DNA of 64,000 nucleotides from a virus, in IMG/VR virus record IMGVR_UViG_3300037088_000882, positions 28,413-92,412 of that record; one strand, written 5' to 3'. Positions 4,801 to 61,538 of this stretch are shown piece by piece (position 1 is the stretch's first letter; each line of letters begins with the position of its first letter). The position numbers and the translations under genes are program-made. The notes below the pieces were generated by a model that was not told where the DNA came from, made no database searches, and was given only the letters and a program-made list of their open reading frames with translations.

Positions 4801-4847
4801 AAACAAAAAACCCTGCTTGATCTTTAGAACCAAGCAGGGTTTTGTTT
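4801..4847 (-). terminator. attenuator terminator 1
   Basis: AAACCCTGCTTG...CAAGCAGGGTTT followed by U tract. Confidence 0.9.
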
Positions 4848-4867
4848 ATTTCTTTTTTAACTTTAGA

Positions 4868-4954
4868 TCAAGACAAAATCCTACCCGGTCCCTTTAGATA
4901 GCTAAGGTAATATGATAGACACAAAGGTAAGGATTGAATAGTCTTATTGCTCAT
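4868..4954 (-). CDS. leader peptide 1 (Leu/Tyr/Cys): MSNKTIQSLPLCLSYYLSYLKGPGRILS
   Basis: 28-aa ORF between promoter and terminator; its 3' end is complementary to the terminator 5' strand. Confidence 0.85.
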   Translation of the reverse strand: MSNKTIQSLPLCLSYYLSYLKGPGRILS

Positions 4955-4962
4955 GATAACTA

Positions 4963-4991
4963 AATATAACACAGAAAAAATAAAAAGTCAA
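4963..4991 (-). promoter_or_regulatory. sigma70 promoter of tRNA array 1
   Basis: TTGACT-17 nt-TATATT with extended TG. Confidence 0.8.
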
Positions 4992-7176: not shown

Positions 7177-8004
7177 TTATGGGAATATGACCATTTCGTT
7201 TGAAACAGGTATAGATCGATCCTCTTTTTTACTTTTATTACTACTTTTCGCTGAATATATAATGTCAATTCCTTGTAAATTATTTCCGTTGAATAGCGAT
7301 TCAGTCGCAGATAGTCTATCTATGGACAAGCACCAAGCTTTTTTAGTATTTAAAAAGTCTCTTAAACGTTCAAGATCTTTTAGGCCAAAGTCACAATTAT
7401 ACCATTTTTTTCCGTATTTAATATAAGGAGGGTCTGCGTAGATGAAATCGAATGGCACATTGTTTAGGAAAGTTTCGAAATCCTCACAAGAAACGGAAAG
7501 GATTTTATCTTTTAACAACATTCTTGTCCGTTCGATTTTTCTTATGATATTTGGAGGATTCCAGTATACGTCAACATTCCAGGCACTTTTTTGATCCCAC
7601 CCTCCGATTGGCAAAGACTCTGTAATAAAGCCGTTGTATGAGGTTTTATTAAGGAAGATTACTTTAAATGTTTTTTCTAAGTTTGTTGTTGGTTCACTGT
7701 GAAAAATATTTTTGTAGGTTTCTAAATTAACAACTTGAGTTGTAATTGCTTTATAAAGGGCTTCAAATTCAGAGTTTTTTGAGGCTTTAAAAAATTTCCA
7801 AAATGACCCTACATCTTTATTAGCGTCATTAAGATGGAATTTCCATAAAGGAAAATCCTTTGCCATGTTAATTAATGACCCGCCTCCTCCGACAAAAGGT
7901 TCAGCTACTGTCCATTCTGATGTGCGGGCTTCAGGATATGTGTTTTTTATCATTAAGTCTATTTTTTTCATTAGCCTTAATTTACCGCCGGGGTATCTTA
8001 GCAT
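7177..8004 (-). CDS. dam: Dam-like N6-adenine DNA methyltransferase (D12 class)
   Basis: RYPGGK, EPFVGGG and DPPY motifs. Confidence 0.85.
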   Translation of the reverse strand: MLRYPGGKLRLMKKIDLMIKNTYPEARTSEWTVAEPFVGGGGSLINMAKDFPLWKFHLNDANKDVGSFWKFFKASKNSEFEALYKAITTQVVNLETYKNIFHSEPTTNLEKTFKVIFLNKTSYNGFITESLPIGGWDQKSAWNVDVYWNPPNIIRKIERTRMLLKDKILSVSCEDFETFLNNVPFDFIYADPPYIKYGKKWYNCDFGLKDLERLRDFLNTKKAWCLSIDRLSATESLFNGNNLQGIDIIYSAKSSNKSKKEDRSIPVSNEMVIFP

Positions 8005-8129
8005 TTATTATCCAATTCGGGTTGTGGAGTGAAAATAACGCTTTATATATAATACTCGAATTATATATAAATATAAAAATAAATCGTTTAGAATCTACGA
8101 AAGGTAGGTAATATCAGGATGGGGAGTTT

Positions 8130-8447
8130 TCAGATTTTTATTTCTATAGGTTTTAAGATCATTGATTCGTCTTCTCCTGCATATACTACAGGGATTTCTG
8201 GGTACAGCTTTTTTAATTTATTTGCAAGTTCTATTCCCCAGGTATTAAGTTTTTTTGCTTTGCCTTTTTTGAATGTTGAATAATCTGATTCGAAGCAAGT
8301 ATCGTAATATCTTATCCAAGATTCAAATTCGTTGATTAATTCTTGAGGCAGTTTTAACTCTTCGTAATCAATCATGCCACCAAGATTCTCCCATATACCA
8401 GAACTTGAGAAGTCTGGCATTACTTTTAGCTTTGTTATCTCATTCAT
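8130..8447 (-). CDS. hypothetical protein
   Basis: 105 aa ORF in operon. Confidence 0.6.
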   Translation of the reverse strand: MNEITKLKVMPDFSSSGIWENLGGMIDYEELKLPQELINEFESWIRYYDTCFESDYSTFKKGKAKKLNTWGIELANKLKKLYPEIPVVYAGEDESMILKPIEIKI

Positions 8448-8829
8448 GATTTTCCTTTAAATAAGTGGAGCTACGGGGATTTGAACCCCGAACTTTCAGC
8501 TTGCAAAGCTGACACTCTTCCAATTGAGTTATAGCCCCATTATTTTCTATCTGAATTTCAGATTTCCAGTCTTTTTGTTTCTTTTCCTGCATTGTTAAAC
8601 TTCCACCACTTTCCCAGGCAGTACGCCTTGGGTTTCCACACATATCACAGCTACATAGTTTTGTAGTATTTCTAAGTATGTAAGAGAAATACCTCAATGT
8701 TTTTTCTGTAGGCTTTGAAGAACATAACAATCCTTGAGCACGTTTCTTCCCCTTATTGGCCCCAATAAGGAAACGTTCTCTACGATCTTTTGGATGAGAC
8801 ATAATGTACCCTTTTCTAGCGTCACTCAC
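8440..8829 (-). CDS. hypothetical phage protein (CSCxMCGNPR motif); 3' part contains tRNA-Ala
   Basis: ORF track; Cys motif. Confidence 0.55.
   Translation of the reverse strand: MSDARKGYIMSHPKDRRERFLIGANKGKKRAQGLLCSSKPTEKTLRYFSYILRNTTKLCSCDMCGNPRRTAWESGGSLTMQEKKQKDWKSEIQIENNGAITQLEECQLCKLKVRGSNPRSSTYLKENHE
8466..8538 (-). tRNA. tRNA-Ala(TGC)
   Basis: TCAGC-TTTGCAA-GCTGA; G3:U70 identity pair. Confidence 0.93.
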
Positions 8830-8875
8830 TGACGCATGATAGTGGATATCATTATGTGCTCCTTTCTTTAAAATA

Positions 8876-8948
8876 AGCCGATGAGAGGGCTCAAACCTCC
8901 AACTTGCTGATTACAAATCAGCTACTCTATCAATTGAGTTACACCGGC
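8876..8948 (-). tRNA. tRNA-Thr(TGT)
   Basis: GCTGA-TTTGTAA-TCAGC; D and T loops slightly non-canonical; no CCA. Confidence 0.85.
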
Positions 8949-10249
8949 GTATGAACATATACGTTTTTAATATACTCCAAAGCATCTTCTTGATTCAAGA
9001 TCGTCCCCTCGAGTTGTTGGTCCTCGATATCGGTTAAGATAATACCGAACTCTGGGCCTTGTTTAAAGCCCATATTAAGCAAATCCTTACCAGTCACGAT
9101 TCTTGGAGGACGAATTTCTTCTGGCTCATAAGTCTTGAGCTTTTCGATAACGAAATCATAGTTCTCAAGATTCCTATGCGATGATAAACAATCTACCCGA
9201 TGAAGAGCTAAATGATCTTCAATATTAGGTAGAGCCAGAAATCTTTTCAGTCGAGAAACTCTCATTTTCTTCACATGCATAAATTTCATGTGGTTTTCGA
9301 CTAAGTCTGAAATTCGAGTTACGAAATCATTTGAAAATTTCAACCTTTTCAAAATTCCCCAAGCAATATACTTACCCTTGATATCGTGGCCACTAAACCT
9401 TATACGGTCCTCGAAGGTTTGAGTAGGTGGCTTACCCACATCATGCAATAAGGTTGCCATTCTCACCTCAATAGAAGCCTCAGTAGGAAGATTTTCAAGA
9501 GCTTTTATCGTATGCTCGAGAACATCTCCTTCGGGGTGGTATTGAGGTGGTTGCTCACAACCCTTCATGGCCCGGACCTCGGGCAGGATATGATCGATTA
9601 ATCCAGTATCAAAAAGAAGGTTTACTGCCTTCCTGTAATTACCTGCCATAAGAATCTTAGTAAGTTCATCTGCAACTCTCTCGGCCGAGACCTGGGTTAT
9701 TTCAAAGGCATGCCTTTGAACTGCCTCTATGGTGCCTGGATCGATTTTGAAATCAAACCTGGCAGAAAAACGTACAACTCTCATCATACGTAATTTATCC
9801 TCAGCAATACGGTCATCAGGATTACCTATAAGCTTTATGATACCCTTATGAAGATCTTCAATACCTCCAACAGAATCGTAAATCTTATCTTCAATTGGGT
9901 CATAGAACATCCCATTGATGGTAAGGTCCCTACGTTGAGCATCCTCTTCCATGGTGCAAAAAGAAACGCTATCGGGCCGTCGACCATCCGAGTACACTCC
10001 ATCAGTCCTATAAGTAGCTACTTCGACTTCCTGGCCTTCATGGACGACTACAATGACTCCGAAAGCTTTGCCAACTGCAAGAGTCTTATCGAATAATTGC
10101 TCGACCATTTCGGGACGTGCGTTAGTGGCTATGTCGATATCAGTTGAAGTCCTTTGTAAGAGCATGTCTCGGACATAGCCTCCAGCAAAGAGAGCTTCAT
10201 AGCCATGGTCTCGTAATTTTTTAACTACATATAATGCTTGTTGTAACAT
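8939..10249 (-). CDS. cca: CCA-adding tRNA nucleotidyltransferase with HD domain
   Basis: GGYVRD, DIDIAT, RRDLTIN, HPEGD and LLHDVGK motifs. Confidence 0.9.
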   Translation of the reverse strand: MLQQALYVVKKLRDHGYEALFAGGYVRDMLLQRTSTDIDIATNARPEMVEQLFDKTLAVGKAFGVIVVVHEGQEVEVATYRTDGVYSDGRRPDSVSFCTMEEDAQRRDLTINGMFYDPIEDKIYDSVGGIEDLHKGIIKLIGNPDDRIAEDKLRMMRVVRFSARFDFKIDPGTIEAVQRHAFEITQVSAERVADELTKILMAGNYRKAVNLLFDTGLIDHILPEVRAMKGCEQPPQYHPEGDVLEHTIKALENLPTEASIEVRMATLLHDVGKPPTQTFEDRIRFSGHDIKGKYIAWGILKRLKFSNDFVTRISDLVENHMKFMHVKKMRVSRLKRFLALPNIEDHLALHRVDCLSSHRNLENYDFVIEKLKTYEPEEIRPPRIVTGKDLLNMGFKQGPEFGIILTDIEDQQLEGTILNQEDALEYIKNVYVHTPV

Positions 10250-10250
10250 A

Positions 10251-10562
10251 TTATCCTATTTTGATATTTTCTTCTTCAATTTTAACCCCTTGTTTTTCAA
10301 GGGATTTGAGATCTCTTTCCAGTTCCTTTATATCTTGTTTTTTATGCTCCAAAACATATATGATAAATCTTTTTATAGCTATGGCATCTTCATCTGAAAC
10401 TTGAACAGTTGAATAGCTTGAAAATTGTATCTCTGATTTTGTTGGATCATCTTTTTTATAGCACAGTATTCGTGTGTTTGCACTACCGCCTGTGAAAGAA
10501 TATTCAATGCCTTCTGAAAAAAAAGATCCAGTACAGACATGCATAATATTAACATTTTTCAT
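10251..10562 (-). CDS. hypothetical protein
   Basis: 103 aa ORF in operon. Confidence 0.55.
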   Translation of the reverse strand: MKNVNIMHVCTGSFFSEGIEYSFTGGSANTRILCYKKDDPTKSEIQFSSYSTVQVSDEDAIAIKRFIIYVLEHKKQDIKELERDLKSLEKQGVKIEEENIKIG

Positions 10563-10581
10563 ATTTTATCCTATTTAAATT

Positions 10582-10659
10582 TGGGGTGGAAGACGGGGCT
10601 TGAACCCGCAACCACTGGCTTCACAGGCCAGGGCTCTAGCCAATTGAGCTACCTCCACC
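10582..10659 (-). tRNA. tRNA-His(GTG) with encoded G-1
   Basis: CTGGC-CTGTGAA-GCCAG; G-1:C73; CCA. Confidence 0.95.
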
Positions 10660-10665
10660 ATAAAA

Positions 10666-11355
10666 TCAGTCTTCTCTTACTTGAACAAATTTTTCGATGT
10701 ATTCTCGATCTTTAGTGAAAATCGGAATGTTTAAATCTACATCCCCATTAACAACACAAAAACCACGTTTCCGCACAACTGGATATTTATCGAAATTTAT
10801 TCCTTTTTTCTGGAATAGTAACTCTTGTATTTCCTTACAAGAGACTTTATTTAATTCCTTGTGTGAAAAGTTTTCTCGCCCTGCCATCTGGATTGAGTTC
10901 CTGGTGGCATCCACTTGTCTCCATATGAAATAGTTTACTACCTCATCCTGAGGAATTGAAAAAACTCTACTATCAAAACAGACGTTGCTTCCATAGAGTC
11001 GAGAAAAGACTGCACTGGCCAAGGAAGCTGATATTGAAATCATTTTTCGTGCATCGTATCCGAACCAGGCATCTGTCGAGATCTTTTTATAATCTGTTAA
11101 AAGAAAGCTTATTTCGTCGGATTGGCAGTAACAAAAACCGCACCCTTGAATGTCAGCTAATACCGTATTAGCAGTTGCGATCATTTGCTCGGTAAACTCC
11201 ATGGACCATCCTTTTCCGAATCTTTTTCTGGTGATGGTGTGGAAGGCCCGGCCATCGATCCTGAGTATTACCGGAATCCGTCTTGGTAAAGTCCAAGCTG
11301 AGACTGATTCATAACGCTTCATGCGATCGCCTAGGTCTAACCTATCACTACTCAT
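10666..11355 (-). CDS. thg1: tRNA-His guanylyltransferase Thg1-like 3'-5' polymerase
   Basis: RMKRYE, RIDGRAFH, QSDEIS, FDSR and WRQVDATRNS motifs. Confidence 0.93.
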   Translation of the reverse strand: MSSDRLDLGDRMKRYESVSAWTLPRRIPVILRIDGRAFHTITRKRFGKGWSMEFTEQMIATANTVLADIQGCGFCYCQSDEISFLLTDYKKISTDAWFGYDARKMISISASLASAVFSRLYGSNVCFDSRVFSIPQDEVVNYFIWRQVDATRNSIQMAGRENFSHKELNKVSCKEIQELLFQKKGINFDKYPVVRKRGFCVVNGDVDLNIPIFTKDREYIEKFVQVRED

Positions 11356-11602
11356 TTTTATTCCGATCTGTTATATAAGATTTAAGTCTTTTAATTATCC
11401 CATTTCCTGTTTCTATACCGTAGAAATCATTCACACAGTTATGGATTCTTTCTACGATTCGATCTGATTTTGATCCTTGTTTTACTGCGTTTTCGTAATA
11501 ATCAATCCAGTCTACAAGCATGTTGTTTTTTTGCAGTACTTCTAACACAAATTCAAGAGGTAGCCCTATAGATGATACTACAAAATGGATTCCTCTAACC
11601 AC
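11348..11602 (-). CDS. small protein resembling an alanyl-tRNA synthetase helical subdomain
   Basis: F-x-SSIGLPLE...LVDW resembles the AlaRS motif FKLYDTYGFPLD...VD. Confidence 0.45.
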   Translation of the reverse strand: MVRGIHFVVSSIGLPLEFVLEVLQKNNMLVDWIDYYENAVKQGSKSDRIVERIHNCVNDFYGIETGNGIIKRLKSYITDRNKNE

Positions 11603-11684
11603 TATTTTTTTATCGGTCGAGTATCCTGAGAACTGTGATACGTTGCGTTTAGCATGAAGCTATTACCCTTCTATTATACATAAA

Positions 11685-11770
11685 TGGCGGAGGCGAGACG
11701 AGTCGAACGTCCAAGGCCTTTCGGCCGGCGGTTTTCAAGACCGCTGAATTACCAGTTATCCTACGCCTCC
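11685..11770 (-). tRNA. tRNA-Ser(TGA)
   Basis: GCGGT-CTTGAAA-ACCGC, long variable arm, G73, CCA. Confidence 0.95.
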
Positions 11771-11780
11771 ATATATCTCA

Positions 11781-11853
11781 AGCCCACATCCTGGATCGAA
11801 CAGGAGACCTCATCCTTACCAAGGATGTGCTCTACCAACTGAGCTATGTGGGC
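11781..11853 (-). tRNA. tRNA-Thr(GGT)
   Basis: CATCC-TTGGTAA-GGATG; no CCA. Confidence 0.95.
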
Positions 11854-11856
11854 ATA

Positions 11857-12297
11857 TTACCTTAACCCGTAAAGGTACAGCAATCCTGCCCATCCACTTG
11901 GAAGGCATTCTGGTGCTGTTTCTAATTTCTTTCCGTATTTCACAGCCATTTCTAAAAAATACTTAGCATGAAAGAATGCCTCTAACATTGGCCGAGTGTG
12001 TTTGAGCCATTCCTTATTATGTTTTGAATCAAATACTTTACCAGTTCCTTCCTGGTATATTTGATCGAAGTCATCATTAAACATAACTCCTACAGGAGCT
12101 AAACTTTTTAAAGTTTCTATTATCTTTTGAGTGCTTCCCTGTATGCCGTATACTTTAAAAGAGGAATGGTAGAAACGGTAAACGTAATCCTCATAACACC
12201 AATGGTCATTAATATCTTCCAGGAGCTTTTCAAGCTCGGGGAGTCTTGCCTTGATATTTACCAAGAGGTCTTTACTAAGATCTTGTCTCTCACTCAT
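11857..12297 (-). CDS. hypothetical protein (start MSERQ; the longer ORF call runs through tRNA-Trp and the attenuator)
   Basis: SD GGGAG before ATG 12297. Confidence 0.7.
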   Translation of the reverse strand: MSERQDLSKDLLVNIKARLPELEKLLEDINDHWCYEDYVYRFYHSSFKVYGIQGSTQKIIETLKSLAPVGVMFNDDFDQIYQEGTGKVFDSKHNKEWLKHTRPMLEAFFHAKYFLEMAVKYGKKLETAPECLPSGWAGLLYLYGLR

Positions 12298-12317
12298 AAG
12301 AACTCCCTTTTTAAAGA

Positions 12318-12379
12318 TGGCAGGAGTGGATCGAACCCCCATCGTCGGTTTTGGAGACCGGGTGCTTAGCGACACTCCT
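12318..12379 (-). tRNA. truncated tRNA-Trp(CCA)-like gene (62 nt)
   Basis: AGGAGTG/CACTCCT-G-CCA acceptor, CTCCAAA loop; D arm minimal, T-stem 3' strand missing. Confidence 0.6.
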
Positions 12380-12381
12380 AT

Positions 12382-12424
12382 AAAACAAAAAACCCCGCCG
12401 AATCTTTCGATCGAGCAGGGTTTG
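12382..12424 (-). terminator. attenuator terminator 2
   Basis: AAACCCTGCTCGA...TCGGCGGGGTTT followed by U tract. Confidence 0.88.
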
Positions 12425-12452
12425 ATTTGAAACACTTTATTTTTACTTAACC

Positions 12453-12551
12453 TTACTCGATCTCCAATATAGTATGCCAATGTGCCCATGATGTCGATGT
12501 GGTGGCCATTGCATTATTAGAGGATGATGTAGTAAGATTAATTGTTTTCAT
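12453..12551 (-). CDS. leader peptide 2 (Thr/Ser/Trp/His/Ala): MKTINLTTSSSNNAMATTSTSWAHWHTILEIE
   Basis: 32-aa apparently leaderless ORF; stop region pairs with the terminator 5' strand. Confidence 0.9.
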   Translation of the reverse strand: MKTINLTTSSSNNAMATTSTSWAHWHTILEIE

Positions 12552-12558
12552 GGTTATA

Positions 12559-12587
12559 ATTATACTATATATTTCGGTTCGTGTCAA
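12559..12587 (-). promoter_or_regulatory. consensus sigma70 promoter of tRNA array 2
   Basis: TTGACA-17 nt-TATAAT, 7 nt before the leader ATG. Confidence 0.9.
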
Positions 12588-12597
12588 TATTTTTAAT

Positions 12598-13056
12598 TTA
12601 TTTCATATTTCTGCTTTTGAACTCTTCTATTATTTGTAAATGATCAAAAGCCATTTTTTCAGGTAATTCTGATATACGGAACCATTTAGCCTCTTTAGCG
12701 TCATCTCTAGCCTCTACTGCATCAATAAGTTTCTTGCTGTATGGGATGAGGGCATAATAGACAACAGACACTACTCGGCCTCTCGGGTCTCGGCCTGGGT
12801 CTCCAAAAGTTTTAAATTGTTTTAGAGGGATATTTTTTAAATCCTTGGTAGACAGAGATGTTTCTTCTTTTAATTCTCTGTAGGCGGCTTCTTCAAGGGT
12901 TTCTCCTGAGTCCAAATAGCCTCCAGGTATTGCCCACATATCTTTAAATGGGTTATTCACACGTTTTATGAGTAATATGTTTACCCATTTTCTTATTGGG
13001 GTCATGATCACAATATCAACTGTTACGTTTTGTTTTTCGTATTTTCTTTTATTCAT
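12598..13056 (-). CDS. Nudix hydrolase (ADP-ribose pyrophosphatase/NrtR N-domain-like)
   Basis: GGYLDSGETLEEAAYRELKEET Nudix box; RDPRGR; AFDH. Confidence 0.9.
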   Translation of the reverse strand: MNKRKYEKQNVTVDIVIMTPIRKWVNILLIKRVNNPFKDMWAIPGGYLDSGETLEEAAYRELKEETSLSTKDLKNIPLKQFKTFGDPGRDPRGRVVSVVYYALIPYSKKLIDAVEARDDAKEAKWFRISELPEKMAFDHLQIIEEFKSRNMK

Positions 13057-13170
13057 ATATTACCTTTGTTAAGAGAGGAAGTCCGAGAGACTGGAGGAAA
13101 AACTCGGACTTCCAAGAGCACCAGCATTTGACGCTGCTGTAGCTCCATAATTTATTATACTGTATTGCTA

Positions 13171-13329
13171 CTATCGATCTGAAATACGCTCTCTGGTTGA
13201 AAATCTATATTCACATTCAACACATTTTCTACGCCTTCGGATATATGTGGCATAATCACGGGAATCTATTACTATGGTTTTGCCTTTACATTTTGGGCAA
13301 ACAAGGTTTTTACGGTTGAGGTTTAACAT
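13171..13329 (-). CDS. stand-alone NrdR-like zinc ribbon (52 aa)
   Basis: CPKC..VIDSR..IRRRRKCVECEYRFSTRE; no ATP-cone. Confidence 0.7.
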   Translation of the reverse strand: MLNLNRKNLVCPKCKGKTIVIDSRDYATYIRRRRKCVECEYRFSTRERISDR

Positions 13330-13459
13330 CTGGTATCCTATCTTCGATCGTTACTATTGCGTGACATTGAGGACACGTAAGTTTTTTAGGGTTAAAAAGA
13401 ATAGGTTCTAATTTTTCTTCTTCTGAAAGGGCTCCACAAAAACCGCATTTGTATTTCAT
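13310..13459 (-). CDS. small zinc-finger protein (49 aa)
   Basis: MKYKCGFCG...CPQC. Confidence 0.5.
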   Translation of the reverse strand: MKYKCGFCGALSEEEKLEPILFNPKKLTCPQCHAIVTIEDRIPDVKPQP

Positions 13460-13460
13460 G

Positions 13461-13736
13461 TCACTTATTCCCTATCTCATTATTGGCGTCTAAAGACATA
13501 AGTGTGTTAGATGAAGCATCCTGTGACGTTCTTATTTCTTCACAATATCCTGAGCATTCCGTTACTACCCAATAAAGGCCGTCTTGCTTTTTTTCCTTAG
13601 TGAATTTATTACATACAGAGAAAGGGTCCCCAGCAATGAGAACACATGAAGCACACCTAGTTTCTCTACGTACTTCTCCTACGTGTCGAGCTGCGAGGCG
13701 AAAAGATGAATCGACTGGAATAAAGATGTAGTTCAC
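13461..13736 (-). CDS. hypothetical Cys-containing protein
   Basis: ORF track. Confidence 0.5.
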   Translation of the reverse strand: MNYIFIPVDSSFRLAARHVGEVRRETRCASCVLIAGDPFSVCNKFTKEKKQDGLYWVVTECSGYCEEIRTSQDASSNTLMSLDANNEIGNK

Positions 13737-13741
13737 GGTTT

Positions 13742-14317
13742 TTATTCATATTGCTGGACGGTTTGATCTAAATGCTCGATCGGTATATTTGCTTTCTTTA
13801 ACATATCAATTGATTCTTGTGCTTTTTGGTAAAGTTTTTTTGCAATGATTTTAGAAACTCCTATGCTTATAAGCATCATGGTGCAGGTTCTGCATGGGGT
13901 CATTGATACGTATACCATGGAACCATCTAAAGAGATTCCTCGACGAGCTGCTTGTAATATAGCATTTTGCTCTGCATGAATAGTTCGAATACAGTGTTGT
14001 GATGGTGGCATCTCATATCGACTTTTAGCTGAGTTGTATGTGTGTGTATCTTTTCTTACTTGCATAATTATTTCTGCATCGTTGAATGCAGGCCACCCAT
14101 TAACTCCAATCGTTTCATCTACAAATCTAATATGTTCTTCCATTTCATGCCCATATTTATCACAATGATCAAATCCTGGTGGGCTTCCAGCATATCCTGT
14201 GGTAAGTATTTGGTTATTCTTTACAAAGACGCATCCAGGTTTACCTCGATCGCAGGTAGACCTTTGAGATATTGAATCGACGACACTCATGAAATATTCA
14301 GTCCAAGTAGGTCTCAT
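13742..14317 (-). CDS. dCMP deaminase (ComEB-like) with insertion
   Basis: RSTC, HAEQNA and PCRTC motifs. Confidence 0.9.
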   Translation of the reverse strand: MRPTWTEYFMSVVDSISQRSTCDRGKPGCVFVKNNQILTTGYAGSPPGFDHCDKYGHEMEEHIRFVDETIGVNGWPAFNDAEIIMQVRKDTHTYNSAKSRYEMPPSQHCIRTIHAEQNAILQAARRGISLDGSMVYVSMTPCRTCTMMLISIGVSKIIAKKLYQKAQESIDMLKKANIPIEHLDQTVQQYE

Positions 14318-15669
14318 TTTTTAAATCCTAAACTTTTTGGTTCTTTGAAATGATTTTCGCATAATTTCTTATGGTCCTTAATAGCTGTTAAAATGGTATA
14401 TGTCTCTTCATTTGTTATATTGTTACGTTTAAACTTCATTTTAGCCAGTTTTACGAACTCCGCTACAAAAGCCATACTCGAACCCTCTAATTCTTTAGCA
14501 AGGTCTCTAAGGGCTTCTTCTGATGTTATGTGGCTTGTGTAATCTATGCTGATATTGTAATACTTCAATAATTTATATATGTTATCCGGTGTAGGCTTTT
14601 CAACCTTATAGATTTTATCGAAGCGACCTGGTCGCCCTATTAATGCTTCATGTAAAATATCTGGAAAATTGGTGGTAGCAAAAAGAATAATATCATCGAA
14701 TTGGTCTACTCCGTCCATCCCTTTGAGAAGGCTGTGTAGTGAAATGCTTCCATAGTCCTTATCCATTTCACCGCTTTGAAAGGCCACAAATTTATCTATA
14801 TCTTCCAAGACACATACACGAGGTTTTACTTCTTCTGGATAGAGTAAATAATCTATGCTGCTTTCATGTATATTATCAAAATTCAAAGTGCCATCCCGTT
14901 CAATTGCTCTTCTTATATCAAAATGCTCGAGTCCGTAATACTCACAAACTTTACGAATAAGAAGAGTTTTGCCATTGCCTGGGCTACCTGCAAGCATGTA
15001 TCCACGACGCCATGCTAATTTAAGATCGTTTTTATAAAGATCTCGACTGATTAAAAAGTTATCGATATCTTCTCGAATATTCTTTAGTATTTCATCTGGC
15101 AGAAAGATTGAATTAAAAGCATCCTTATCGCAGTTTTGTTCGGTAAGTTTTATTGCTCTGAGTTTTTTTGAGAATCTTTTAATAAAAGAGGTGATAGTGC
15201 TTTCATTCCACTCTTTATTTTTAGGGTCAAAGACAATCCATATATTGTTTGTGCTGCTAGATACGTAGGATTCATCGTAACTTAAGTAGTAAACTCCAGG
15301 CTCGATCTCGGCAAAACCGTTAGGGCATCGTAAGTCTAACCCGAGATTATTCCCATAAATATTTACATATGAAAAAGCAATTCCACCATATGAGGATATT
15401 TTTGGGCCTATGTATGTTTCTAATCTCTTTGTATCAAAAGGATTATTCATCAATAAGCTATTCTCAGATAGACCGTATTTATTTAAGATTAAGGCTATGC
15501 GGTTGAAATAGACTAAATCTGTGAGTGGGTCGTAAAGGGGTAGAATTTTTGGAATGTTTTTGATTTTTAAACCTAATTTAGGTTTTACATTACGTTGAGG
15601 CTTCCACCCTAGTCCTATTCCTGGTGGTGTGGCAACAGCTTGAGTTGTTTTACAGTATTGAGGATTCAT
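14314..15669 (-). CDS. AAA+ ATPase
   Basis: GSPGNGKT Walker A, LEDID Walker B, TTN sensor, RPGRFD. Confidence 0.9.
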   Translation of the reverse strand: MNPQYCKTTQAVATPPGIGLGWKPQRNVKPKLGLKIKNIPKILPLYDPLTDLVYFNRIALILNKYGLSENSLLMNNPFDTKRLETYIGPKISSYGGIAFSYVNIYGNNLGLDLRCPNGFAEIEPGVYYLSYDESYVSSSTNNIWIVFDPKNKEWNESTITSFIKRFSKKLRAIKLTEQNCDKDAFNSIFLPDEILKNIREDIDNFLISRDLYKNDLKLAWRRGYMLAGSPGNGKTLLIRKVCEYYGLEHFDIRRAIERDGTLNFDNIHESSIDYLLYPEEVKPRVCVLEDIDKFVAFQSGEMDKDYGSISLHSLLKGMDGVDQFDDIILFATTNFPDILHEALIGRPGRFDKIYKVEKPTPDNIYKLLKYYNISIDYTSHITSEEALRDLAKELEGSSMAFVAEFVKLAKMKFKRNNITNEETYTILTAIKDHKKLCENHFKEPKSLGFKK

Positions 15670-17354
15670 GACATTTTTACCTTATAAAGTTTAGTTCCAT
15701 CCGCAAAGTATACTTCCACGCCATTATGGTATAACCTTGTTGATGAATTGATTGGTGAATTTTTTATTTCCTTTTTATGGTCCTTATCTCTAAATAATAC
15801 TGTTTTATCATCGTCGGCTAAAATATTTAATCCATTTTCTAGTGAGATAAAATTAACTGCCCCAGGACCCGTCATGGGTTCTATCCAAACTGAATATTTT
15901 GAGAAATTTTCATTAAAGATCAATATGTACTGCCAAAAATTTCCACCTTTTTCTACAATAAGAACAGAGGTGTGTCCTTCATGTTTTGCATCTATTATTC
16001 GAAACCCATTTAACTCGCTTACCAGAATATTGACGCAATGTCCCGGACTGTAGGGTACAGCAAGATGGCATTTCATGAAATCGTCTTGAGTTATTATGCC
16101 AGGGAAGATCTTATAGGAAGGGCATAGGTTGCTTACGGGCTTAGTTTGATGTAGGAGTCTACCTAATCGTTCAAAAGAGTTCTCTACGAGTTCTCCGTTG
16201 TTTATAGAATAGATTAAACCATTCGCACCAAACATTGCTTCAGCTGACATGACACTTACAGGTTTTTTAGATAAATCATAGAAGCATATTTGCCCATCTA
16301 ATCCTGGATGACCTATAATTGGGTCTTCTCCATAAATAGATAACATTTCAAGATTGTTTCGGCCAGTTTTAGTGAAATTAAATACTTGTTTATCCTCTTT
16401 ATAAACCCCTGAATTTGTTATGGCATAACGGGTTTTATCGAAGAAGTAAATTTTTTGTATTGTTGATGAGAATTCTTTTACCAGTTCCACTATAAAGCCT
16501 CCTTGACTGGAGACTGACTTTCCTTGAGAAATTGCAATAGAAACCAAATCAGCATAAGGAGGAATTGATCTTTCTCCTTTACTGAAAACAGCCTTGTACC
16601 AATCAAGATGTTTTTTAGGAATTACTGAGAAATCCTGGCAGGACTTGGGTAAAGTTACGTCTTTATCGAAAACTGAGATTCCCTTATCCATTCTTTTACC
16701 CCATTCAGCAGGAGCAAAATTAGGATGAAAACCTTTATAAGGGTGTATGCCAACATACATCTGGAAGGTAACTACTGCAAAACTAAACCAGTCAGTAAGT
16801 TCAGTGAACACCCCTTGAGGAGCCTGTCGGTCTCGTACGGATTCCATCAAGGCCATGGCCGGGAATGACGGAGTTTTCCAAGAATCCACATCGATACAAT
16901 AAACAATTTTCATGTCACTGCTTATTAGAAAATTCATTTCATTATAATCGACTATAAGAAATTTGTTTTTATGAACAAATTCTAATGTTTTTTGCATGCC
17001 CGAGATCATTTCAATTATATCTTTGGGGCTAATGTTTTTTTCATCTCTGAAGTTTTTAGTAAAAATTTTACACAGAAATTCTGTGCTGTCGACATAGGGC
17101 ATGGTAAACCCTATAGGCATCATATCTTTTGGATCATATAAGGGCTCGATGGGGGCGAGAATATTGTCTCTATTAAGGGTCCCGAGTTCCTGGATCTTGG
17201 CCACAGGGATCATTTGTTTAGGGTCGTGGTATATTTTATAAGCTATTGAATCCTTACAATAAACAACGCCTTGGCCTCCCGCAGCTTTATAATCTTTATC
17301 GGTAAGGGTTATAATTCCACTTTTCTTTTTTACTTTGGTTACTTTTGAATTCAT
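15666..17354 (-). CDS. Ser/Thr kinase-like protein (TerY-P triad type)
   Basis: GGQGVVY, AYKIY, DYNEMN, IDVDS and DWFSF motifs. Confidence 0.8.
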   Translation of the reverse strand: MNSKVTKVKKKSGIITLTDKDYKAAGGQGVVYCKDSIAYKIYHDPKQMIPVAKIQELGTLNRDNILAPIEPLYDPKDMMPIGFTMPYVDSTEFLCKIFTKNFRDEKNISPKDIIEMISGMQKTLEFVHKNKFLIVDYNEMNFLISSDMKIVYCIDVDSWKTPSFPAMALMESVRDRQAPQGVFTELTDWFSFAVVTFQMYVGIHPYKGFHPNFAPAEWGKRMDKGISVFDKDVTLPKSCQDFSVIPKKHLDWYKAVFSKGERSIPPYADLVSIAISQGKSVSSQGGFIVELVKEFSSTIQKIYFFDKTRYAITNSGVYKEDKQVFNFTKTGRNNLEMLSIYGEDPIIGHPGLDGQICFYDLSKKPVSVMSAEAMFGANGLIYSINNGELVENSFERLGRLLHQTKPVSNLCPSYKIFPGIITQDDFMKCHLAVPYSPGHCVNILVSELNGFRIIDAKHEGHTSVLIVEKGGNFWQYILIFNENFSKYSVWIEPMTGPGAVNFISLENGLNILADDDKTVLFRDKDHKKEIKNSPINSSTRLYHNGVEVYFADGTKLYKVKMS

Positions 17355-22890: not shown

Positions 22891-23700
22891 TTAAATTGAT
22901 ATTGCAGCGATTCCTATATCATCACTATGAGACCAGTTTTTTCCTAATAAGCTTTTTTTAAGAAATCCCATTGTTCTTTTTACAAAGACTCCCTGGGTAT
23001 TTGGGAAATCCATAACTTCTAACATCATTTGCTGGTCGAAGACTGGGTCCTTGTTATGGTTTAGGTAATGATCGAGTCCATCAGTTGTGACCGCTATTAT
23101 GTCACCAGGGCCAGGATTTACCACGGTACAAAAAGGATGGTCGAATGGGTTATCTGTTATGAAAGGCTCGTCTTTACCTAGTTCTCCTTCAGTCCTACGA
23201 ACTGTATTATCTGGACCGAGTTTTTTTATGTAATCGTCTCGAGATGTAATCAAATAGAAAGGAGCATTTGTTTGGGGGTATTCAATTTTTATGTATTCAA
23301 TGCAGTCTTTATCTCTCTTTTTATGTAATATGTACCCATCTCCCCATCCAAATAAATAGGTAAGATTGTCGTGAACGGATACTATCATTAAGAGAGTAGC
23401 TTGTAAGGAGTTTATGCTTATAGGGTATAATTTTCTGATTTCATCGGCACGTTTTATAATACTATTCCCTAATAGAGGTGCTAAGGTATTTATTTTTACT
23501 TCAAAAAACAGATCATGAAAAGATTGTAGAACATATCGAGATACATGGCAAAGAATTTGAGATCCAATTTCTGAATTCTCGGCAGAGGAGCAACCATCGG
23601 ATATGATTGCATAATGTAGGTTTTTATAAGTTCCAGATAAAGCGTAGTCTTGGCAAACTTGGTGAGTGGTACCTATTTCAAAATATGAGTCGGTATTCAT
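22891..23700 (-). CDS. PP2C-family phosphatase (TerY-P triad type)
   Basis: HQVCQD, SDGCSS, GDG, TDG and DD motifs. Confidence 0.85.
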   Translation of the reverse strand: MNTDSYFEIGTTHQVCQDYALSGTYKNLHYAIISDGCSSAENSEIGSQILCHVSRYVLQSFHDLFFEVKINTLAPLLGNSIIKRADEIRKLYPISINSLQATLLMIVSVHDNLTYLFGWGDGYILHKKRDKDCIEYIKIEYPQTNAPFYLITSRDDYIKKLGPDNTVRRTEGELGKDEPFITDNPFDHPFCTVVNPGPGDIIAVTTDGLDHYLNHNKDPVFDQQMMLEVMDFPNTQGVFVKRTMGFLKKSLLGKNWSHSDDIGIAAISI

Positions 23701-59846: not shown

Positions 59847-59890
59847 AAAAAACAAAAAACCTCGTTGGTTTCCCAGCGAGGTTTTGATTT
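59847..59890 (-). terminator. attenuator terminator 3
   Basis: AAAACCTCGCTGG-GAAA-CCAACGAGGTTTT followed by U tract, directly before tRNA-Asp. Confidence 0.9.
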
Positions 59891-59913
59891 AATCTATTTT
59901 GTTACTTGTTAAA

Positions 59914-60003
59914 TCAAGACCCCGCCTTAGGCATAGTATCAAACATGCTATCACTAATGATAAACATAAAGCTGATACTGACGGTCTTGGTTGAAAGTAA
60001 CAT
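59914..60003 (-). CDS. leader peptide 3 (Ser-AGY/Ile/Phe/Met/Asp): MLLSTKTVSISFMFIISDSMFDTMPKAGS
   Basis: 29-aa ORF with SD AAGGA; stop region pairs with the terminator 5' strand. Confidence 0.9.
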   Translation of the reverse strand: MLLSTKTVSISFMFIISDSMFDTMPKAGS

Positions 60004-60046
60004 TGAAAGTAATTTCCTTAGTAAAGTAAACTGCGAATCTTAATTA

Positions 60047-60075
60047 AAGATAACACATAAAAAAGTTTTTGTCAA
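60047..60075 (-). promoter_or_regulatory. sigma70 promoter of tRNA array 3
   Basis: TTGACA-17 nt-TATCTT with extended TG. Confidence 0.8.
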
Positions 60076-60379
60076 TATATTTTTTTAAAAAAATAATTTA
60101 TACTCGATTTCATGTATAAGAGTGTATAATTTGTTATAAATAATTTTAAAGATAAATTTGCACTTAAGTTATTTTTATGCTATATTAAGGTCTAATAGTT
60201 TATCTCTATAGGTTTTTTACTTATTTGTTTTTCAAAGGAGTTTTATATGTAATCGCAAAATGTTTACTCGCTTCATTTGTGTAATAGCCAGTTGGGTCGG
60301 GCCATTAAGTGTCCCATTAATACTGACAGGCTAACGTTTTAAGATCACTAAACGCAAAACAACTAACAAGGAGTCTATC

Positions 60380-60991: not shown

Positions 60992-61020
60992 TTGACTTTA
61001 CTTTTTAAAACAGTTATAAT
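60992..61020 (+). promoter_or_regulatory. sigma70 promoter of tRNA array 4
   Basis: TTGACT-17 nt-TATAAT, 6 nt before the leader ATG. Confidence 0.88.
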
Positions 61021-61026
61021 TATACC

Positions 61027-61104
61027 ATGTTAAAAAATACGTTAAACACAATTATAGGTACGGTCGGGATAAGTGAACGTAAGGTAGGAGGATTTCTAAC
61101 CTGA
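61027..61104 (+). CDS. leader peptide 4: MLKNTLNTIIGTVGISERKVGGFLT
   Basis: 25-aa apparently leaderless ORF; CCTGACAGGGCCT pairs with the terminator 5' strand AGGCCCCGTCAGG. Confidence 0.8.
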   Translation: MLKNTLNTIIGTVGISERKVGGFLT

Positions 61105-61134
61105 CAGGGCCTGTATTGTATAAAAAGTAAGTTC

Positions 61135-61170
61135 AAGGCCCCGTCAGGAAACCGACGGGGCCTTTTTTAT
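61135..61170 (+). terminator. attenuator terminator 4
   Basis: AAGGCCCCGTC-AGGAAACC-GACGGGGCCTT followed by U tract. Confidence 0.92.
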
Positions 61171-61457: not shown

Positions 61458-61538
61458 AGGGTAGTACCGAGCCGCTCTTATAAGGCGGATAGTCGTAATG
61501 GTATGTGGAAGATATGAGTTCAAGTCTCATCTACCCTA
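61458..61538 (+). tRNA. D-armless tRNA-Ile(TAT)-like RNA
   Basis: AGGGTAG/CTACCCT-A acceptor, CCGCT-CTTATAA-GGCGG, T arm ATGAG-TTCAAGT-CTCAT; about 25-nt variable region. Confidence 0.6.

Follow-up and report, generated by a model that had tools for sequence, protein, structure and literature searches.

A 64,000-nucleotide (nt) stretch of viral DNA, hereafter the window, was found to contain on its minus strand, at positions 12587-12382, a compact element (unit B) in which a promoter, a short open reading frame (ORF) and an intrinsic terminator stand one after another ahead of a cluster of tRNA genes. As judged from its sequence, unit B is likely to be a transcription attenuator of the ribosome-mediated (leader-peptide) type, through which a phage tRNA operon would be controlled by the supply of the same tRNAs that the operon encodes; the tRNAs are probably made only when ribosomes run short of them. 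The window is the final 64 kb of the 92.4-kb IMG/VR virus record IMGVR_UViG_3300037088_000882, has a G+C content of approximately 0.37, and is taken to be a fragment of a huge-phage genome because CheckV rated the 92.4-kb record as approximately 20% complete. The DNA runs containing this stretch were peat metagenomes from several studies, the sequencing runs listed with it included none of RNA, and no match to GenBank phages was found by megablast for window positions 8000-14000. ARAGORN called 20 tRNA genes in four clusters of the window, and Rfam agreed with these 20 and added one more at 61458-61538. Unit B is surrounded by genes of tRNA metabolism, namely those for a CCA-adding enzyme and a Thg1-like tRNA-His guanylyltransferase (Table 1).

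The promoter of unit B matched the sigma-70 consensus at 12 of 12 positions, as had been claimed in the original prediction, and was the only perfect promoter in the window. The ATG of the leader ORF (12551) lies 7 nt past the -10 box and has no Shine-Dalgarno sequence, unlike the neighbouring protein genes, where GGAG-type sites are present; the mRNA would therefore be leaderless or near-leaderless. Threonine, serine, alanine, tryptophan and histidine account for 19 of the 32 leader residues (T 7, S 5, A 3, W 2, H 2), and codons 16-27 (ATTSTSWAHWHT) are 12 consecutive codons for these five amino acids. All five serine codons are TCN, and the serine tRNA downstream is Ser-TGA. The threonine codons are ACA (four), ACT (two) and ACC (one), with no ACG. 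The distal tRNAs (His, Thr-TGT and Ala) also have their codons in the leader, as CAT (two), ACA (four) and GCA (two), respectively. The 19 of 32 residues, the run of 12 codons and the serine and threonine codon counts, which the original prediction had reported, held when the minus strand was read again. In the long ORFs of the record the same five amino acids make up 0.231 of residues, giving a probability of 5.8e-6 for at least 19 of 31, and among the ATG ORFs of 20-45 codons in the 92-kb record the unit B leader ranked 1 of 426 for the match to its own tRNA set. The leader sequence was identical across all covering contigs from the DNA of other peat runs.

Short ORFs are common in AT-rich DNA and this case was picked by eye, so that chance alone might have brought together, ahead of tRNAs, a promoter of the ordinary kind, a short ORF without meaning and the terminator of a gene located upstream. 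This explanation is very improbable given the probability and rank above and the fact that no permutation reached the observed match between leaders and tRNAs (described below). Moreover, the terminator is located downstream of its own promoter and not at the end of the upstream NUDIX gene.

The RNA of unit B is predicted to form mutually exclusive structures. A strand spanning the stop codon (region 2) is complementary to the 5' arm of the terminator (region 3), and the duplex was found to be -18.1 kcal/mol compared to -8.8 +/- 2.4 kcal/mol for dinucleotide shuffles (P = 0.002), in agreement with the antiterminator pairing that had been proposed for this site. Region 2 falls within the footprint of a ribosome at the stop codon, and the terminator comes after the promoter and ahead of the tRNAs, at a distance of 4 nt from the first tRNA-like gene. 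When the RNA was folded without the 3' arm of the terminator, the 2:3 antiterminator pairing formed. In the full RNA at equilibrium, codons 4-8 (region 1) paired with the stop region, and the terminator was present; when the stop region was masked by a ribosome, the terminator alone formed. These modelled folds follow the logic of the trp and his attenuators. At the Rfam gathering score the only matches in the whole window were tRNAs, and no leader or T-box match was found up to E = 10 in 11600-12700.

In the proposed mechanism, host RNA polymerase would start at the consensus promoter, placing the 5' end of the RNA at or beside the AUG, and a ribosome would translate the 32-codon leader while the polymerase advances. 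If decoding is fast, the ribosome at the stop codon would cover region 2, regions 3 and 4 would pair, and transcription would terminate at approximately 12387, giving an RNA of approximately 165 nt. If decoding is slow at ACA/ACT/ACC, TCN, TGG, CAT or GCA codons because the corresponding aminoacyl-tRNAs are scarce, region 2 would be free as region 3 emerges, the antiterminator would form, and the polymerase would read through. Read-through would yield tRNA-Trp, Thr-GGT, Ser-TGA, Thg1, tRNA-His, the CCA-adding enzyme, Thr-TGT and tRNA-Ala, and the new tRNAs would ease the stall, closing a negative feedback.

All four tRNA clusters of the window were found to be headed by one layout, in which a promoter comes first, then a short ORF, then, at the stop codon, a strand that can pair with the terminator 5' arm, then the terminator, and finally the tRNAs (units A to D, Table 1). 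The compact strong terminators of the 92-kb record numbered exactly four, each heading a tRNA cluster, and the remainder were weak, long, intragenic hairpins. The T tracts of units B and C are followed by the first tRNA after only 4-7 nt, a gap too short for another promoter, so that the tRNAs behind these two units would be made only via terminator read-through. The ATG follows the -10 box by 8, 7 and 6 nt in units A, B and D, respectively, in each case with no Shine-Dalgarno sequence, and the leaders of these three units look leaderless; unit C has a 5' region of 43 nt with AAGGAA. In the best 12-codon window, the leaders of units A, B and C had 9, 11 and 12 codons, respectively, matching their own cluster, compared to 0-3 for the other clusters of the window. 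The match extends to the choice among serine codons, since the four core serine codons of unit C are AGY, ahead of Ser-GCT, and the serine codons of unit B are all TCN, ahead of Ser-TGA. In a stall model with one ribosome footprint and equilibrium folding, the terminator was abolished when the ribosome stood at codons 4-13 in unit A and at codons 3-12 in unit C.

Units of the same kind were found in relatives, which were collected from loci of Thg1 homologues, whole-record tRNA maps, fetched regions, and an automatic search, in which a terminator qualified if a tRNA followed within 800 nt and a short ORF ended beside it. The leaders of these relatives differ in amino acids, yet they suit their own tRNA arrays (Table 1). 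In two uncultured relatives, G001 and G002, the unit with the ATIRM core lies approximately 1.5 kb upstream of Thg1 and is the positional counterpart of unit B. A further relative, L094, was located via the homologue of the 146-amino acid (aa) ORF that follows the Trp gene of unit B; this ORF had no match in Pfam and PHROG searches, and its homologue in L094 occupies the equivalent place behind a codon-matched leader. In another relative, G005, the leaders of the two units (L088, L090) were codon-matched and the antiterminator pairing was no better than in shuffles; the antiterminator of these units may have another geometry.

The layout is also present in Tunturi_5, a cultured Tunturiibacter phage and a jumbo phage of Acidobacteriota. 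One of its three codon-matched units is annotated as the hypothetical protein gp308, and another, MKTLCLSSYCLSSSLSLS..., heads Leu/Cys/Tyr/Ser tRNAs and resembles unit A. The remaining unit is located just after a NUDIX gene (15411-15797, minus strand), as in unit B. The synteny of the NUDIX gene and the leader is thus conserved across phages with G+C contents of 0.37 and 0.57.

The agreement between leaders and tRNAs was quantified in nine independent units chosen by an objective rule (ARAGORN tRNAs only, best candidate ORF per terminator). The summed best 12-codon cognate count was 71, compared to 31.4 +/- 6.7 when the tRNA sets were permuted, and none of 200,000 permutations reached it. In a set of 13 units, partly hand-picked, from the phage of the window, four uncultured relatives and Tunturi_5, z was 8.1, with 0 of 300,000 permutations reaching the observed value. 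When only those amino acids were considered for which the downstream tRNAs decode part of the synonymous codons, 29 of 39 leader codons were cognate compared to 15.2 expected from the codon usage of each record (z = 4.8). Since synonymous codon choice tracks the downstream anticodons, these findings point to tRNA species, and not amino acids, as the matched quantity. Together with the 13-unit match and the elements of unit B that exceeded their controls, this synonymous choice supports the attenuator interpretation advanced in the original prediction.

We infer that the leader ORFs are translated. A sign of this in the sequence is that the orthologous leaders of G001 and G002 differ by three indels of 3, 3 and 9 nt within the ORF and by indels of 1 nt after the stop, although the indels are few. 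In the four units of the window and in three units of G001, the antiterminator strand lies on the stop codon or directly against it, each pairing having P <= 0.006 compared to shuffles. Measured from the stop, the 5' strand of the antiterminator falls between -21 and +11 nt in these seven units, a range that the footprint of a terminating ribosome would include.

Several observations weigh against the attenuator interpretation. In the stall model, the terminator probability of unit B, which was 0.92 at the outset, came down no further than about 0.71-0.77; it did so only when the ribosome stood at codons 4-7, and there was no decrease for stalls in the main run at codons 16-27. Because the equilibrium model is weak there, unit B would need kinetic competition, or queued ribosomes over region 1, to operate as proposed. 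This folding result, with the terminator favoured at most ribosome positions, and the missing Shine-Dalgarno sequence would suit a terminator that simply leaks, or yields to an antitermination factor of the phage or the host, independently of translation, the ORF being an unrelated micro-gene or untranslated. Such an explanation is nevertheless quite improbable, as it leaves unexplained the tracking of tRNAs by leader codons, the antiterminator placed on the stop codon in seven units, and the indels that preserve the reading frame.

The composition of the leader also counts against attenuation by the encoded tRNAs, as it includes Asn (three), Ile (three), Leu (two), Glu (two) and Lys codons for which the operon has no tRNA. 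Unit D has the architecture, and its codon match was not significant. An architecture of this kind without a codon match might be expected if the hardware is that of an attenuator that responds to amino-acid starvation or to the overall capacity for translation, for example as a timer of the infection stage opening as host translation slows, with the codons only tuning the sensitivity; any slowing of ribosomes would give read-through in a design such as unit B, and uncharged tRNA arising from amino-acid shortage would act alike. A general sensor, however, has no reason for its leader to track the tRNAs across 13 units down to the synonymous level, and we consider this version unlikely. With sensing of the encoded tRNAs as the preferred reading, further adverse points are that this assembly has a damaged Trp tRNA and that many Thg1-bearing relatives with tRNAs lack such units. 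One of these, L014, was examined as the closest tRNA-rich relative by Thg1 and set aside, as its tRNAs directly follow protein genes. In phage T5, the tRNA region has small ORFs and many promoters, with no terminator-plus-leader units and no codon match, and T5 is therefore no model for the units described here.

On the minus strand from 12380 to 4991, where the promoter of unit A lies, no strong terminator was found and no promoter above 9/12, a score that the scan also reaches by chance. The leader and the distal tRNAs are separated by neither a strong promoter nor a strong terminator; weak 9/12 promoter-like sites are present at chance frequency before Thr-TGT (8998-8969) and elsewhere, which is a further point on the adverse side as internal starts are possible. 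One transcript probably holds the tRNAs, the small ORFs, Thg1 and the CCA-adding enzyme, and the unit B transcript may run on into a Dam methylase gene and a gene for a 690-aa ATPase-like protein.

The original prediction had stated that the leader is rich in exactly the five amino acids of six downstream tRNAs. Five of the six tRNAs were called by ARAGORN and Rfam, and the statement hinges on the sixth, the Trp element (12379-12316), which is non-canonical and escaped both programs at their default settings. It retains a perfect 7-bp acceptor stem, the discriminator G, an encoded CCA, a CCA anticodon arm, and a TTCGATC T loop, and it does not form a full canonical cloverleaf with 7-bp acceptor, D, anticodon and T arms. 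Compared to the Trp tRNA of a relative, the copy in this assembly is short of approximately 8 nt in the D arm and of the T-stem 3' strand, and only poor cloverleafs were obtained in the mitochondrial mode of ARAGORN or at low thresholds. Among contigs from four other peat runs that were compared with the stretch, two, one of 61 kb from run X3 and one from run X7, were near-identical otherwise and had 5 extra bases in the Trp gene. The extra bases, GCCCT on the minus strand, complete the T stem, and this allele was called as a 67-nt tRNA-Trp(CCA), still with a minimal D arm, by ARAGORN at a 90% threshold. These findings show that the Trp gene is real in the population and unusual, and that in this record it is damaged or mis-assembled, through an assembly error or as a defective allele. 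A junction from 11847 to 12379 through 36 foreign bases in run X8 was judged to be an artefact of tRNA similarity from other organisms.

Table 1. Coordinates of unit B, its operon, its sister units and the corresponding units of relatives (window positions unless a phage or relative is named)
Feature	Position	Strand	Details
NUDIX hydrolase	12598-13056	-	directly upstream of unit B leader
Unit B	12587-12382	-	heads Trp-like, Thr-GGT, Ser-TGA, His, Thr-TGT and Ala tRNAs
Sigma-70-type promoter	12559..12587	-	TTGACA (12587-12582), 17 nt, TATAAT (12564-12559)
Leader ORF	12453..12551	-	32 codons + TAA, MKTINLTTSSSNNAMATTSTSWAHWHTILEIE; stop at 12455-12453
Region 1 (predicted)	12530..12541	-	codons 4-8; pairs with stop-codon region in full-length minimum-energy fold (RNAfold)
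Region 2, antiterminator 5' strand	12449..12462	-	GATCGAGTAAGGTT; spans stop 12455-12453
Region 3, terminator 5' arm	12409..12422	-	AACCCTGCTCGATC; partner of region 2
Intrinsic terminator	12382..12420	-	hairpin 12420-12393, -15.2 kcal/mol, then TTTTTTGTTTT
Non-canonical tRNA-Trp(CCA)-like gene	12316..12379	-	first gene after unit B terminator
146-aa ORF	11857..12297	-	function unassigned; first protein gene of the operon
tRNA-Thr(GGT)	11781..11853	-	ARAGORN + Rfam
tRNA-Ser(TGA)	11685..11770	-	ARAGORN + Rfam
Thg1-like tRNA-His guanylyltransferase	10666..11355	-	Pfam Thg1 1.9e-22; PHROG 4717 7e-72
tRNA-His(GTG)	10582..10658	-	ARAGORN + Rfam
tRNA nucleotidyltransferase (CCA-adding enzyme)	8939..10249	-	Pfam PolyA_pol 1.9e-37; PHROG 2244 9.5e-78
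tRNA-Thr(TGT)	8876..8948	-	ARAGORN + Rfam
tRNA-Ala(TGC)	8465..8538	-	ARAGORN + Rfam
Unit A	4805..4991	-	leader MSNKTIQSLPLCLSYYLSYLKGPGRILS; heads Cys, Leu x5 and Tyr tRNAs
Unit C	about 59854..60085	-	leader MLLSTKTVSISFMFIISDSMFDTMPKAGS; heads Asp, Met x2, Ile, Phe and Ser-GCT tRNAs
Unit D	60992..61168	+	leader MLKNTLNTIIGTVGISERKVGGFLT; heads Glu x2 and D-armless tRNA(UAU)
G001 and G002 (L003, L004)			leader ...GCA ACA ATT AGA ATG... (ATIRM); tRNAs Met-CAT, Thr-TGT, Ile-GAT, Ala-TGC, Arg-TCT
G001 and G002			leader MRITTNNTFSNSNCTCNFCFSNS...; tRNAs Phe, Asn, Ser-GCT, Cys, Thr-CGT; two ACG codons
G001 and G002			44-codon leader rich in L, H, K, V, E, S, W, G, Y, D; 13-tRNA array
G005			leader core SSSRSSR; tRNAs Arg-ACG, Ser x4
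G005 (L050)			leader core QQWQPQP; tRNAs Gln, Pro x2, Trp
L094			leader MIATTTIRIEGREGEGEGTIMS, core EGREGEGEG; tRNAs Glu x2, Gly x2, Met, Thr-CGT, Arg x2
Tunturi_5 (PP885688, L095, G+C 0.57)	2823-2972, 15210-15374, about 23290-23390	-	three units

Leader-peptide attenuation is known from trpL, hisL, leuL and pheL, and from leaders that sense several amino acids, such as the thr leader (Thr and Ile) and the ilvGMEDA leader (Ile, Leu and Val). Unit B resembles the enterobacterial thr and ilv attenuators in its promoter-proximal short ORF with regulatory codons, the presumed sensing of several amino acids, the intrinsic terminator before the regulated genes, and a mutually exclusive antiterminator that would depend on ribosome position. 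In contrast to these, it is phage-owned and apparently leaderless, covers up to five or more amino acids with a codon match at the level of isoacceptors, and targets genes for tRNAs and tRNA-maturation enzymes and not for biosynthesis. The genes behind unit B (tRNAs, Thg1 and the CCA-adding enzyme) neither make nor charge the sensed amino acids. In Escherichia coli, pheST, which encodes phenylalanyl-tRNA synthetase, is attenuated through the pheM leader, and here too a leader peptide controls a gene of the translation apparatus; the target, however, is a synthetase, one amino acid is sensed, and the system is cellular and does not act on tRNA genes. T-box riboswitches likewise read the state of a specific tRNA and switch between terminator and antiterminator, but they bind uncharged tRNA directly without translation and control synthetase and amino-acid genes. 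The sensing of many codons at once in unit B, unlike a T-box, implies the ribosome. In mycobacteria, leaderless Cys-rich short ORFs act as attenuators of cysteine-related protein genes. These are similar to unit B in being leaderless and in sensing aminoacyl-tRNA supply through codon content, and differ from it in that they respond to one amino acid, are not of phage origin and control no tRNA genes.

The nearest published functional parallel is the trn operon of Anabaena sp. PCC 7120, a supernumerary and silent tRNA array that is induced by impaired translation under the repressor TrcR (PMC8421152, PMC10272220). Control there is by a repressor, with no codon-matched sensor described, and one of these reports (PMC10272220) has no mention of a leader, attenuation or terminator. 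The paper on the Tunturi phages lists 43 tRNAs and has no mention of a leader or attenuation (PMC11924767). A full-text literature search, which did not extend to old T5 papers in subscription journals, gave no account of leader-peptide attenuation of tRNA genes.

Why phages carry tRNAs is debated; they have been proposed to compensate for codon usage, to make up for a host pool that is being degraded, or to let the phage evade defences that cut tRNAs. If the attenuator interpretation is correct, unit B would extend textbook attenuation to tRNA genes as a new class of target, and would bear on this debate: the phage would measure the shortage itself and reply cluster by cluster, which makes an input-output question that can be tested. 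It would also provide a compact natural part reporting the availability of chosen isoacceptors. As a tentative extension, huge soil phages might carry a modular, isoacceptor-resolving sensor of the tRNA pool, with each block kept off until ribosomes stall at the codons read by its tRNAs. The phage would thereby make good precisely the host tRNAs in short supply or cleaved by anticodon-nuclease defences, and the same transcript would supply the end-repair enzymes Thg1 (5' ends) and the CCA-adding enzyme (3' ends). On this extended reading, the units would be a first case of leader-peptide attenuation acting on tRNA genes and would offer a direct handle on the reason why phages have them. Because the layout is present in cultured Tunturi_5, whose host is Tunturiibacter psychrotolerans, a wet-lab system exists.

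Additional observations were made on the sister units and relatives. The terminators of unit A (4805-4843) and unit C (59854-59885) are flanked by an A tract on the leading side of the hairpin and a T tract on the trailing side, and therefore score on the opposite strand too, as a bidirectional form. The leader of unit A (4868-4954, minus strand) has five serine codons, yet its cluster has no ordinary serine tRNA; the homologous array of Tunturi_5 has three serine tRNAs and a Ser-rich leader.

In G001 and G002 (L084, L085), the last tRNA of the array behind the F/N/S/C/T leader has a CUA anticodon and was reported by ARAGORN as 'Pyl-cta', which would make it an amber suppressor and hints at TAG recoding in these relatives; no tRNA with this anticodon was found in the window. 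In L004, at 13119-13268 on the plus strand, ARAGORN called two adjacent tRNAs with the four-base anticodons cttg and cttt and anticodon loops of 8 nt, which may be frameshift-suppressor-like or miscalls.

The tRNA at 61458-61538 (plus strand), which was missed by ARAGORN and scored 37 bits in Rfam, has the anticodon UAU (Ile, AUA). It has approximately 4 nt in place of the D arm and a variable region of 22 nt with a D-loop-like GUAAUGGUA. The leader of unit D has two ATA codons.

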